Below, piece after piece: positions 18,001-21,000 of a DNA stretch of 64,000 nt (its first letter is position 1; each line of letters starts with the position of its first letter). The stretch lies in assembly GCF_056712565.1 (NCBI RefSeq), contig NZ_CM160072.1. One strand, written 5' to 3'. Position numbers: made by a program.

Positions 18001-21000
18001 CCAAGTACGAGTGCACAATCATCACCACCAATAAAGTCTTCGCCAATAATAAACGCTTGCGCCAGGCCATCCGGACTCGGTTGTACTTTATACTGTAGAT
18101 TAAGACCCCACTGGCTCCCGTCCCCCAATAATTGTTGGAAACGCGGTGTATCCTGTGGCGTACTAATAATAAGAATATCGCGAATACCCGCTAACATAAG
18201 CGTTGAAAGCGGATAATAAATCATCGGCTTATCATAAATCGGCAGCAATTGTTTACTCACTGCCATCGTCACAGGATAAAGACGAGTGCCGGAACCACCA
18301 GCCAGAATAATACCTTTACGCGTTTTCATTTCACCATTCCTTTTAATTCATCCCGCTCTGGCATCATGAGCGAGATGCAAAAATTTGTTAAATTGCCGTA
18401 GTCGTAAATAATTCGTTGAGCATACGTTTCACGCCCACCTGCCAGTCAGGCAAGACAAGCGCAAAGTTCTGCTGAAACTTTTCTGTATTGAGGCGAGAGT
18501 TATGGGGTCGACGGGCTGGTGTGGGATAGGCCGTTGTTGGCACGGCGTTAAGTTTGTTAAGTGCAAGATTAATCCCTGCTTTGCGCGCCTCTTCAAAAAC
18601 CAGCGCAGCATAATCGTGCCAGGTTGTTGTGCCACTTGCTACCAGATGGTACAAGCCAGCGACTTCTGGTTTTTTTAATGCCACGCGAATGGCATGAGCG
18701 GTGCAATCAGCCAGCAATTCAGCACCTGTTGGTGCGCCAAACTGATCGTTTATCACAGCCAGTTCTTCGCGTTCTTTTGCCAAACGCAACATCGTTTTAG
18801 CAAAGTTATTTCCTTTACCAGCGTATACCCAGCTGGTACGGAAAATAAGATGCTTTGCGCAATGTTCTTGTAATGCCTTTTCCCCAGCTAATTTTGTTTC
18901 ACCGTAAACATTTAGCGGTGCTGTTGCATCCGTTTCCAGCCATGGCGCGTCACCACTGCCTGGGAAAACATAATCAGTAGAGTAGTGTATAACCCAGGCC
19001 CCGACTTCATTAGCAGCTTTTGCAATCGCTTCGACGCTTGTCGCGTTAAGTAATTGTGCGAAATCCGGTTCTGATTCTGCTTTATCTACTGCAGTGTGAG
19101 CAGCAGCATTAACAATAACGTCAGGACGAATTTTTTTGACGGTTTCTGCCACACCTTCGGGGTTGCTGAAATCTCCACAATAATTAGTGGAGTGAACATC
19201 AAGAGCGATCAGATTACCCAGCGGCGCCAGAGCACGCTGCAGTTCCCAACCCACCTGCCCTGTTTTGCCGAAAAGCAGGATATTCATTACTGACGGCCCT
19301 CATAGTTTTGTTCGATCCATGACTGATAAGCACCGCTTTTCACATTCTCAACCCAATTTGTATTAGCCAGATACCATTCCACCGTTTTGCGAATCCCGCT
19401 CTCAAACGTTTCCTGTGGTTTCCAGCCCAATTCGCGGCTAATTTTATCGGCATCAATTGCATAACGGCGATCATGCCCTGGGCGATCAGCAACATAAGTA
19501 ATTTGCTCACGATAAGATTTCTCTTTCGGTACAATCTCATCCAACAAATCACAAATAGTCAGCACAACATCGATGTTTTTCTTTTCGTTGTGTCCGCCAA
19601 TGTTATAAGTTTCACCCGCTTTACCTTCGGTTACGACGGTATATAACGCACGAGCATGATCCTCTACATACAACCAGTCGCGAATTTGATCCCCTTTGCC
19701 ATAAATAGGTAATGCCTTACCTTCCAGTGCATTAAGAATAACCAATGGAATAAGCTTTTCCGGGAAGTGATACGGACCATAGTTGTTCGAGCAATTAGTC
19801 ACAATGGTCGGTAAACCATACGTACGTTTCCATGCGCGAACCAAATGATCGCTGGAAGCTTTAGAAGCAGAATACGGGCTACTTGGCGCGTAGGCTGTCG
19901 TTTCCGTAAATAGCGGTAACGCTTCGTTATTATTTACTTCATCCGGATGGGGTAAGTCACCATATACTTCATCAGTAGAAATATGATGAAAGCGGAAGTT
20001 TTTTTTCTTTTCATCATCCAGACCAGACCAATAATTGCGCGCAGCTTCTAAAAGTACGTAAGTACCTACAATATTAGTTTCAATGAATGCCGCCGGGCCA
20101 GTTATTGAGCGGTCAACGTGGCTCTCAGCCGCAAGGTGCATCACCGCATCTGGCTGGTGTTGTGAAAAAATACGCGCCATCGCTTCGGCATCGCAGATAT
20201 CTGCATGCTCAAATGAATAACGCTCAGAATCAGAAACTTCAGCGAGCGATTCCAGGTTTCCGGCGTATGTTAATTTATCGACATTAACAACACTATCTTG
20301 CGTATTATTTATTATGTGACGAACAACAGCAGAACCAATAAAGCCTGCGCCACCAGTAACAAGTATCTTCACTTTTTTATTCCATATAGCCAGAGAGCAT
20401 ACTGTGAAATAGACTGCTCGAGATTTGATTAATAGAAGTATTAATGCACGCTACCGCCCCTGGCTTAACAGCTACCAGAGCACTGCGTACATTTCTACGA
20501 TGTGACGAGCGTATCCCGCTCGTGCCAAATCCGAAAAATTCAAACGCTAATTGTCTTACCAAACAGCTGTAGAAACAAGGAAAATCCTGGAAAAATTTGA
20601 ACTATGATTACAAGCTAACATCCTGTTTTCATTGCATTTATAAAAACAACAACGGCAGTGAGATTCAATGAGCAAAACTTATGCTACGAATCTTCACTGC
20701 CGTTTTTAATTACTTACTGACTGACACTTCCTGTCAGGAATTTGTTACTCGCTTAACAACTTCTCAATGCCTTTGCGGAACTTAGCGCCTTCTTTCAGGT
20801 TGCGTAGTCCATACTTCACAAACGCTTGCATATAACCCATTTTCTTACCACAGTCGTAACTGTCCCCAGTCATCAGCATTGCGTCAACTGCTTGTTTTTT
20901 TGCCAACTCAGCAATGGCATCAGTCAACTGAATACGTCCCCATGCTCCAGGTTGAGTACGCTCCAGTTCAGGCCAAATATCGGCAGAAAGCACATAACGC

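Follow-up and report, generated by a model that had tools for sequence, protein, structure and literature searches.

JUMPstart/ops Elements in the Leaders of the O-Antigen and Colanic Acid Operons of an Escherichia coli O2 Strain

Results and Discussion

The O-antigen (rfb) and colanic acid (wca) operons of the 64-kb stretch of DNA analyzed here (the window) are each preceded by a bona fide JUMPstart/ops element located in an untranslated leader. We consider it very probable that both are canonical JUMPstart elements, with ops (operon polarity suppressor), the sequence that loads RfaH for the rfb and wca operons, as their 3′ 12 nt. The window comes from an E. coli O2 strain, covers the region his–gnd–rfb(O2)–galF–wca–yegH and is 100% identical to several ExPEC/APEC genomes. 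The gene context of both operons is as the original prediction had described it: rmlB/rfbB (19287–20372, GTG start at 20372), galF (20745–21638), wcaM (21813–23207) and wza (43426–44565, ATG start at 44565) are all encoded on the minus strand, with the rfb operon spanning 15.1 kb (20372 to 5242) and the wca operon 22.8 kb (44565 to 21813). The rfb cluster has a GC content of 36%, falling to 30–33% in its serotype-specific genes, and the region that comprises the wza promoter and leader has a GC content of 34%; DNA of this type is targeted by H-NS and Rho, which is why antitermination would be needed. The wca operon itself, at 53% GC, is not AT-rich, which weakens the counter-silencing rationale for it. 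Shine-Dalgarno sequences are weak or absent at both rmlB and wza.

A scan for the JUMPstart motif, proposed as a check along with the original prediction, was run with the Rfam covariance model RF01707 (gathering score, 35 bits) and returns two matches in the window and no others, both of them full-length (model positions 1–38 of 38). The higher-scoring match, at 61.1 bits, is the 39-nt element CAGTGCTCTGGTAGCTGTTAAGCCAGGGGCGGTAGCGTG of the O2 O-antigen leader, located in the galF–rmlB intergenic region (20447–20485, minus strand); the second, at 57.3 bits, is CAGTGTATTGGTAGCTAAAAAGCCAGGGGCGGTAGCGTG in the colanic acid (wza) leader (44744–44782, minus strand). Both copies read CAGTG...GGTAGCT...AAGCCAGGGGCGGTAGCGTG and fit the 39-nt consensus, in which a G-rich spacer accompanies two GGTAGC repeats. 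The elements had been called identical, which is correct for ops and the 3′ half but not for the whole 39 nt, over which 33 bases agree and positions 6–8 and 17–19, in the 5′ flank and the loop, differ. They share the GGTAGC repeats, the 5-bp stem-loop and the placement in the 5′ leader of a polysaccharide operon with the JUMPstart family (Hobbs & Reeves 1994; Rfam RF01707, Weinberg et al. 2010), from which these copies, differing mutually at 6 of 39 positions, show no substantial difference.

The 3′ end of each JUMPstart is the ops 12-mer GGCGGTAGCGTG, which is matched exactly at 20447–20458 in the rfb leader (minus strand; G1 = 20458, G10 = 20449, T11 = 20448, G12 = 20447) and at 44744–44755 in the wza leader (minus strand). 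With up to one mismatch allowed, these are the only two places in the 64 kb at which the 12-mer occurs, and nothing else in the window matches GGCGGTAGnnTG or the pattern GGTAGC...GGCGGTAG. The positions of the 12-mer and its common flank were both predicted correctly: ccctggct on the plus strand, which is AGCCAGGG on the transcribed strand, is found at each site, and the exact run common to the two extends over 20 nt (AAGCCAGGGGCGGTAGCGTG), comprising the ops 12-mer and 8 upstream bases. The 3′ end of ops lies 75 nt upstream of the rmlB GTG and 179 nt upstream of the wza ATG, and the ops pause positions fall at 20448/20449 (rfb) and 44745/44746 (wza). Both copies are on the non-template strand of an intergenic leader, in the orientation of the downstream operon, with no annotated gene over either. 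RfaH recruitment needs C3, G4, G5, T6, A7 and G8 of ops, and the pause needs T11 and G12 (Zuber et al. 2018, PMC5995543); every one of these bases is present in both copies. Three other GGCGGTAG 8-mers, found at 32029 (in wcaI, sense strand), 45335 and 55213 (alkA), were weighed as possible places for RfaH to reload but discarded, as they lack the JUMPstart context and lack T11 G12 and/or lie inside or antisense to genes. Ops-like sites in coding regions do not bind RfaH (PMC9765446).

The elements are strongly conserved. The wza JUMPstart is identical over its 39 nt in K-12 and CFT073, within an upstream region that is 98–99% identical to both, and the rfb JUMPstart differs from the K-12 and CFT073 O-antigen leaders at a single loop base. 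Among complete E. coli genomes, the rfb-type element is found in 5,425 of 5,426 and the wza-type element in 5,375 of 5,426; in 4,140 E. coli records the latter is at least 99% identical. The rfaH gene lies outside the window and is present in 5,425 of 5,426 complete genomes; of the 12 listed genomes with this O2 cluster at ∼100% identity, at least 11 must therefore encode it.

Orthologous data from K-12 bear on whether the motif is transcribed. The Term-seq supplements (PMC7815308) list an abundant 3′ end at G10 of the rfb ops (2113139, ∼27,000 reads) that is not Rho-dependent, as well as 3′ ends at G10 and U11 of the ops in the waaQ leader (3808184 and 3808183). The end at G10 means that the rfb motif is transcribed, so that the orthologous K-12 element lies within the transcribed leader, the location on which the original prediction turned. 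The ends at G10 (rfb) and at G10/U11 (waaQ) are consistent with the backtrack-prone pause at ops. The terms “RfaH”, “rfb”, “JUMPstart” and “pause” are all absent from the main text of the Term-seq paper (PMC7815308), and the Cappable-seq supplement gives no coordinates matching the start sites of the leaders. A mildly useful by-product is that, in public K-12 3′-end maps, the ends at ops G10/U11 are sharp in both of the ops leaders that are expressed.

Upstream of the rfb JUMPstart, a promoter is predicted at 20550–20578 (minus strand), with a −35 element TTGTTT (20578–20573), a 17-nt spacer, a −10 element GACAAT (20555–20550) and a transcription start at ∼20545. The O7 leader, presumably 173 nt long, agrees with this start. 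The putative promoter sits in a block that is near-invariant among the window, K-12 and CFT073, and its hexamers match 7 of 12 consensus positions; a consensus promoter scan of the minus strand of the galF–rmlB gap found no promoter, the proposed hexamers included. On the K-12 3′-end data, the start of rfb transcription falls somewhere from window position 20657 to 20491. Farther upstream, a terminator-like hairpin of galF can be read at 20642–20704 (minus strand) as AACGGCAGTGAAGATTC ... GAATCTCACTGCCGTT, followed by GTTGTTTTT; its arms are kept in K-12 and CFT073, and the K-12 Term-seq 3′ end 2113346 maps inside it. Between the predicted start and the JUMPstart, the minimum free energy (MFE) and centroid folds of the putative 173-nt leader both contain stem-loop I (ACGAGCG-GGAUA-CGCUCGU, 20505–20523, minus strand), which is kept in K-12 and CFT073; in one condition, a K-12 RNA 3′ end (2113181) occurs 14 nt downstream of its equivalent. 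The putative leader as a whole is modestly structured, with z = −3.0 versus shuffles.

The upstream half of JUMPstart contains a second, smaller stem-loop, with a conserved fold reported by Weinberg et al. 2010. In the rfb copy (20460–20478, minus strand), CUGGU (20478–20474) pairs with GCCAG (20464–20460), as indicated by the Rfam consensus structure, the MFE fold of the 39-mer and covariation. The 5-bp stem joins positions 8–12 with 22–26, and in the wza copy it reads UUGGU/GCCAG with one G-U pair. Across 65 distinct elements drawn from other genera, the share of paired cells is 94.5%, compared with 84.5 ± 1.2 in shuffles (none of 500 reach the observed value), and double-sided changes number 30 versus 11.3 ± 2.4, though relatedness among the sequences and a search pattern in which parts of the element were fixed inflate these statistics. 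Some 10 cross-genus matches (Mycobacterium, Rhodospirillales, Polyangia, Prevotella and others) that look like chance or contamination were left out by hand. Slid registers pair in only 30–60% of cells, and G-U pairs in the stem occur on the sense strand only. The test is informative with the cross-genus set only; with four E. coli sequences, covariation is not significant (127 of 500 shuffles).

These observations raise the question of whether the upstream half acts chiefly as a nascent-RNA (or ssDNA) hairpin, which may tune ops pausing or backtracking or act as an attenuation checkpoint, making the 39-nt element more than a place for RfaH to load. The covariation across many genera and the confinement of G-U pairs to the sense strand speak for such a role, as does the distance of 12–13 nt between the end of the stem and U11, which would put the hairpin at about the exit-channel position when polymerase pauses. 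The fold of the 39-mer is weak, however, with a z of ∼0 versus shuffles, and the MFE structure of the wza 39-mer does not use the conserved stem. Because the energies of the 39-mer and of the wza leader are no better than those of shuffled sequences, thermodynamics alone gives a structured RNA no support. Furthermore, RfaH can be recruited in vitro by ops alone (Zuber et al. 2018, PMC5995543), and on balance we consider it unlikely that the hairpin is the chief function of this half of the element. Slightly more doubtful still is the notion, suggested by a covarying hairpin 12–13 nt upstream of the pause together with the abundant K-12 RNAs that end at G10/U11 (rfb, waaQ), that hairpin and ops form a checkpoint at which polymerases without RfaH might be held, backtracked or released to yield a discrete leader RNA of ∼100 nt.

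The preferred reading, that ops loads RfaH in both leaders, draws on ChIP-seq in CFT073. There, RfaH loads at ops in the O-antigen (wzx) leader and in the wza–wcaM leader and stays through the transcription units, the signal is gone in ΔrfaH, and σ70 peaks lie upstream of ops; in K-12, two operons recruit RfaH (PMC9765446). Since the published occupancy and ops-associated 3′ ends come from identical or near-identical orthologous leaders, the same behavior would be expected of the leaders in the window, from which we infer that the operons of this strain are probably RfaH-dependent. The same 12-mer, GGCGGTAGCGTG, stands on the non-template strand in the leaders of the K-12 (rfb, waaQ) and CFT073 (wzx, wza, kps, hly, rfa) loci. 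What sets the window apart from them is the downstream O-antigen gene set, which is that of O2 (rmlBDA-fdtACB-wzx-...-wzy...) and not that of O16 or O6, and ∼2.6 kb of ISAs1/ISEc1 debris that precedes the last gene of the cluster.

It might be supposed that the shared sequence has been kept for a reason other than regulation, either by chance or because homologous recombination joins O-antigen clusters to their surroundings there, at their 5′ edge. JUMPstart does mark the edge of serotype-specific DNA, in that homology between the O2 window and CFT073 (O6) ends within 1–2 nt past ops, but the same element also stands before wza and waaQ, neither of which is a serotype-variable junction, and it recurs across many genera. 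Coincidence is excluded by the presence of two exact 12-mers, both in leaders and in operon orientation, when shuffles give an expected count of 0.24 even with one mismatch allowed. Given that RfaH binding has been demonstrated by ChIP (PMC9765446) and that the element occurs at non-junction loci, a nonregulatory origin is effectively refuted, and we regard it as extremely improbable.

The colanic acid operon calls for more caution, as the wza ops could be genuine and RfaH nevertheless marginal, with initiation (RcsAB, H-NS) deciding expression and a GC-normal, well-translated wca operon needing little antitermination. In CFT073, wza–wcaM is a “cryptic” RfaH locus, at which the RNA polymerase signal of the wild type is below background and RfaH is seen only in Δhns ΔstpA cells (PMC9765446). 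That loading becomes visible only after removal of H-NS/StpA argues that under ordinary conditions initiation, not elongation, limits expression. The K-12 Term-seq tables contain no 3′ ends or transcripts in the wza leader, and the GC content of wca (53%, vs 36% in rfb) points the same way. A consensus scan of 44400–45300 gives a single promoter-like site on the minus strand (TGGAGA-16-CATAAT, 44871–44898, 9 of 12 positions), with a predicted start at ∼44864; a literature search on the wza start site yielded nothing useful. It is difficult, however, to reconcile a marginal role with the conservation of the wza element across E. coli, which argues for selection, or with the loading of RfaH there once the promoter fires (PMC9765446). 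Moreover, the 23-kb length of the operon and its untranslated, REP-bearing gaps are openings for Rho. A marginal contribution of RfaH is thus a possibility to be taken seriously, albeit one that we think rather unlikely. RfaH-mediated antitermination of both operons, as originally proposed, is supported by the identity of the ops/JUMPstart elements and by CFT073 ChIP-seq at near-identical leaders, but the wording that both depend on it is too strong for colanic acid.

The REP elements that had been noted inside the colanic acid operon are found at both predicted places. An array between cpsB (30360–31796) and cpsG (28797–30167) occupies 30258–30358 and is identified by REP consensus matches and two imperfect palindromes, and units between wzc and wcaA (39844–40683) occupy 40741–40811, with consensus matches and inverted repeats; neither feature is assigned a strand. 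The units match GCC[GT]GATGCG[AG]CG / CG[CT]CTTATC[AC]GGCCTAC and do not differ from known REP/BIME sequences, being imperfect palindromes in untranslated gaps and present in multiple copies. In E. coli genomes, the number of places that match the cpsB/cpsG REP sequence has a median of 11, and the array is length-polymorphic between strains. It is plausible that these elements modulate polarity or mRNA stability.

Together, the published work and the arrangement of the leaders suggest the following mechanism. RNA polymerase would initiate at a promoter downstream of galF for rfb and, for colanic acid, at an Rcs-controlled, H-NS-silenced promoter upstream of wza, would transcribe the untranslated leader and would then pause at ops U11. 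The exposed non-template strand would form a small hairpin, with a C3:G8 pair and T6 flipped out, to which RfaH is recruited. RfaH would remain on the polymerase, keeping NusG off; it would suppress pausing, Rho-dependent termination and H-NS-promoted backtracking, and it would bring the ribosome to the first genes, whose Shine-Dalgarno sequences are poor. As a result, transcription would extend to the distal genes in both the O2 rfb operon, which is AT-rich and 15 kb long, and the 23-kb wca operon. The EAR/epsC RNA, λ nut/put and rrn boxA are similar in being leader-encoded signals that make RNA polymerase termination-resistant over a long operon, and EAR shares with JUMPstart the link to exopolysaccharide genes. 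However, EAR, nut/put and boxA are RNA elements that bind RNA polymerase or Nus factors and have no sequence relation to ops, which is non-template DNA read by a NusG paralogue.

Conclusions

Descriptions of JUMPstart/ops elements in front of the O-antigen and colanic acid clusters of E. coli go back to the 1990s, and the presence of such elements before the two clusters of this window is already known and ordinary. With a curated Rfam family and confirmation by RfaH ChIP-seq, nothing here is new for biology, and the practical value lies in annotation: labels can be placed with confidence on both leaders, on the ops pause positions and on the REP arrays, and RfaH dependence can be flagged for the O2 cluster. 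This flag is of relevance in that ExPEC/APEC strains mutated in rfaH lose both O-antigen and capsule and show attenuation.

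Two ops-bearing JUMPstart elements

A search of the whole window for GGCGGTAGCGTG with up to one mismatch returned exactly two matches, 20447–20458 and 44744–44755, both on the minus strand, against 0.24 expected from dinucleotide-preserving shuffles. The ops pattern GGCGGTAGnnTG and the arrangement GGTAGC...GGCGGTAG matched at the same two sites only. We also ran the motif scan proposed in the original prediction, comparing the window with all Rfam families, and it placed JUMPstart (RF01707) at both sites and nowhere else, full-length, with scores of 61.1 and 57.3 bits (gathering score 35). 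The predicted common flank is present at both sites, where the exact common run is 20 nt, AAGCCAGGGGCGGTAGCGTG. The description of the elements as identical holds for ops and the 3′ half and fails for the whole 39 nt, of which 33 positions are common and positions 6–8 and 17–19 differ. Five copies of the ops core 8-mer, GGCGGTAG, lie in the window (0.96 expected), always on the minus strand; the three extra copies, at 32029–32036 (wcaI, sense), 45335–45342 (antisense to yegH) and 55213–55220 (alkA, sense), lack both T11 G12 and JUMPstart context. Both sites carry all the sequence-testable features by which the JUMPstart family and ops are defined.

The gene map was transferred from the RefSeq annotation of PU-1, one of a dozen complete E. 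coli O2 genomes, also including APEC E18055 (O2:K1:H7), HM670 (O2:H1) and BEN2908, with 100% identity to the window over 5000–20400 (15.4 kb). Gene order begins hisIE, wzzB, ugd, gnd. On the minus strand lie the O2 O-antigen (rfb) cluster, from rfbB/rmlB (19287–20372) to a sulfatase/LTA-synthase-like gene (5242–6870), galF (20745–21638), and the colanic acid (wca) cluster, from wza (43426–44565) to wcaM (21813–23207). The measured spans, 15.1 kb for rfb and 22.8 kb for wca, agree with the predicted 15 and 23 kb. Beyond the colanic acid cluster are yegH, a toxin-antitoxin pair, asmA, dcd, udk, dgcE, alkA, yegD, yegI, pphC, yegL, two ibs/sib loci and mdtA. The pair inserted between yegH and asmA (46882–47500, plus strand) encodes a Gp49/RelE-like toxin (PF05973) and an HTH_37 antitoxin; 910 of 5,426 E. 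coli genomes carry it, whereas no such pair is annotated there in K-12 within the coordinates inspected. The tandem Sib antitoxin RNAs (RF00113; 60336–60478 and 60664–60806, plus strand; 141 and 139 bits) and the annotated Ibs type I toxins opposite them occupy the yegL-mdtA interval and form the known sibA/sibB-ibsA/ibsB locus. Within the O2 cluster, an intact 155-aa hexapeptide acetyltransferase ORF (16572–17039, minus strand), FdtC-like (dTDP-Fuc3N acetyltransferase) by its position between ketoisomerase and aminotransferase, appears in the PU-1 RefSeq annotation as just two "incomplete" pseudogene fragments, probably an annotation artefact.

The rfb leader and its RNA 3′ ends

In transcription order along the minus strand, the galF-rmlB gap (20373–20744) opens with a long hairpin and T-run (20704–20642) that looks like the galF terminator. 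The block 3′ of this hairpin is near-invariant across the window, K-12 (O16) and CFT073 (O6), and should contain the rfb promoter; the best predicted hexamers, TTGTTT-17-GACAAT (20578–20550), have only 7/12 matches and were not picked up by a consensus promoter scan. A stem-loop (20523–20505) precedes the JUMPstart (20485–20447), whose final 12 nt are ops, and a further 74 nt of leader ends in a weak ribosome-binding region and the rmlB GTG. The CFT073 O-antigen JUMPstart differs from the window copy by one loop base. Because homology between CFT073 and the window ends 1–2 bases past ops, the JUMPstart is also the 5′ edge of serotype-specific DNA.

To locate ops relative to the transcribed leader we used Term-seq tables from the supplement of Adams et al. 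2021 (PMC7815308), a paper whose main text never mentions "RfaH", "rfb", "JUMPstart" or "pause". For K-12 in LB culture, these tables list an abundant 3′ end at 2113139 (∼27,000 reads), which is classed as not Rho-dependent and scores 2.8 as an intrinsic terminator. By coordinate calculation this is G10 of ops in the orthologous rfb leader (window position 20449, with U11 at 20448), placing the K-12 rfb motif inside the transcribed leader, as the original prediction requires. In the waaQ leader, which belongs to the other ops operon expressed in K-12, abundant 3′ ends fall at 3808184 (G10) and 3808183 (U11) (PMC7815308). These ends fit the ops pause, since U11 complexes backtrack by 2–3 nt and G10 complexes by one (Zuber et al. 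2018, PMC5995543). Transcripts of K-12 galF end upstream, at 2113346 (PMC7815308), and the rfb transcript therefore starts between window positions 20657 and 20491. The tables contain no 3′ ends in the K-12 wza leader, which agrees with a silenced wza promoter.

The wza leader

The region upstream of wza is 98–99% identical between the window and both K-12 and CFT073, and the wza JUMPstart itself does not differ between CFT073 and the window. Its sole promoter-like site is TGGAGA-16-CATAAT (44898–44871, minus strand), followed in the predicted leader by a strong hairpin (44836–44802) and the JUMPstart (44782–44744). The sequence after this hairpin is TTTTAAAAATT in this strain versus GTGAAAAATT in K-12, and the hairpin may be a weak, strain-variable terminator-like feature. 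Between JUMPstart and ATG lie 178 nt of leader in which no Shine-Dalgarno sequence is recognisable. On the opposite strand, over the promoter region, the RefSeq annotations of PU-1 and CFT073 include a hypothetical protein of 49 aa (WP_162829205.1, ∼44874–45023, plus strand), likely a spurious call.

Predicted RfaH recruitment and the proposed need for antitermination

In the accepted mechanism (Zuber et al. 2018, PMC5995543), RNA polymerase pauses at U11 of ops, and the non-template strand exposed there folds into a small hairpin (C3:G8, with T6 flipped out) that recruits RfaH. Recruitment is lost when G4, G5, A7 or G8 is substituted, and T11 G12 create the pause (Zuber et al. 2018, PMC5995543); all of these bases are present at both window sites. 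In the wild-type uropathogenic strain CFT073, RfaH ChIP-seq marks four loci, the O-antigen operon (wzx) among them, and four further loci, including wza-wcaM, in a delta-hns delta-stpA strain; each has ops in the non-template strand of the leader with sigma-70 peaks upstream of it, the signal disappears in delta-rfaH cells, and ops-like sites in coding regions show no binding (PMC9765446). Pausing, RfaH occupancy and distal-gene dependence have been published for orthologous leaders that are identical or nearly so, and would be expected in this strain. The predicted dependence of both operons on RfaH is well supported for rfb and weaker for wca, for which we prefer "RfaH loads and probably helps" because the published data rank initiation control (H-NS silencing and Rcs activation) ahead of RfaH for colanic acid (PMC9765446). 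In CFT073 itself (2423192–2424776), the annotation gives wza a frameshift and wzb an internal stop; the colanic acid export genes of the ChIP strain are therefore pseudogenes, yet RfaH still loads at the leader ops.

The O2 cluster has 36% GC, and 30–33% in its serotype-specific genes. Between its DUF1972 glycosyltransferase gene (9549–10625) and its last gene, the sulfatase/LTA-synthase-family gene, lies ∼2.6 kb of non-translated ISAs1/ISEc1 debris (6939–9370, minus strand), consisting of degenerate transposase fragments with frameshifts and an internal stop. H-NS and Rho act on DNA of this kind, AT-rich and interrupted by untranslated debris. Rho-dependent polarity should be greatest at the gene behind the debris, and hence RfaH should matter most there.

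The wca operon (23 kb) has 53% GC, its AT-rich part being the promoter and leader region only (34% GC), and its untranslated gaps carry REP elements. These were correctly predicted to lie inside the operon, as an array between cpsB and cpsG (30258–30358) and units between wzc and wcaA (40741–40811). E. coli genomes match the cpsB/cpsG REP sequence at a median of 11 places each. The array region (30216–30360) is length-polymorphic, with a gap of 192 nt in the window and CFT073 but 101 nt in PU-1, which otherwise shares an identical rfb cluster with the window. Only 3,280 of 5,426 genomes cover 80% or more of the region. Downstream of the array, directly upstream of the cpsG (phosphomannomutase) start codon, lies an "algC RNA" motif (RF02929; 30172–30221, minus strand; 78 bits). 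Further REP clusters occur outside the polysaccharide operons, at 1008–1106 (hisIE/wzzB) and 54396–54479 (dgcE/alkA).

Conservation of the element

Of 5,426 complete E. coli genomes, 5,425 contain a match to the rfb-type 39-mer (at a median of three places each) and 5,425 contain the rfaH gene; the wza-type 39-mer is matched in 5,375, with at least 99% identity in 4,140 records. A pattern scan using one genome per species found at least 120 matching loci. Among the matches listed, Enterobacterales dominate (Citrobacter, Enterobacter, Yersinia, Serratia, Pantoea, Pectobacterium, Rahnella, Tatumella, Hafnia, Arsenophonus and others), the remainder being Shewanella, Aeromonas and a few probable chance matches.

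The JUMPstart stem-loop was previously described by Weinberg et al. 2010, and its five-pair stem covaries clearly across 65 distinct elements (CUGG/CCAG, CAGG/CCUG, UUGG/CCAA, CGGG/CCCG). Paired cells reach 94.5% versus 84.5 ± 1.2 in shuffles and double-sided changes 30 versus 11.3 ± 2.4, neither attained in 500 shuffles, although both figures are inflated by related sequences and by a search pattern that fixed parts of the element. Slid registers pair in just 30–60% of cells, G-U pairs occur on the sense strand only, and the folding energy is unremarkable. We consider it improbable that this hairpin, ending 12–13 nt upstream of the pause, acts with ops as a checkpoint yielding the discrete short leader RNAs of K-12.

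Neither element departs from the known JUMPstart/ops kind. The finding is the correct recognition of a textbook regulatory element, one that is already known.
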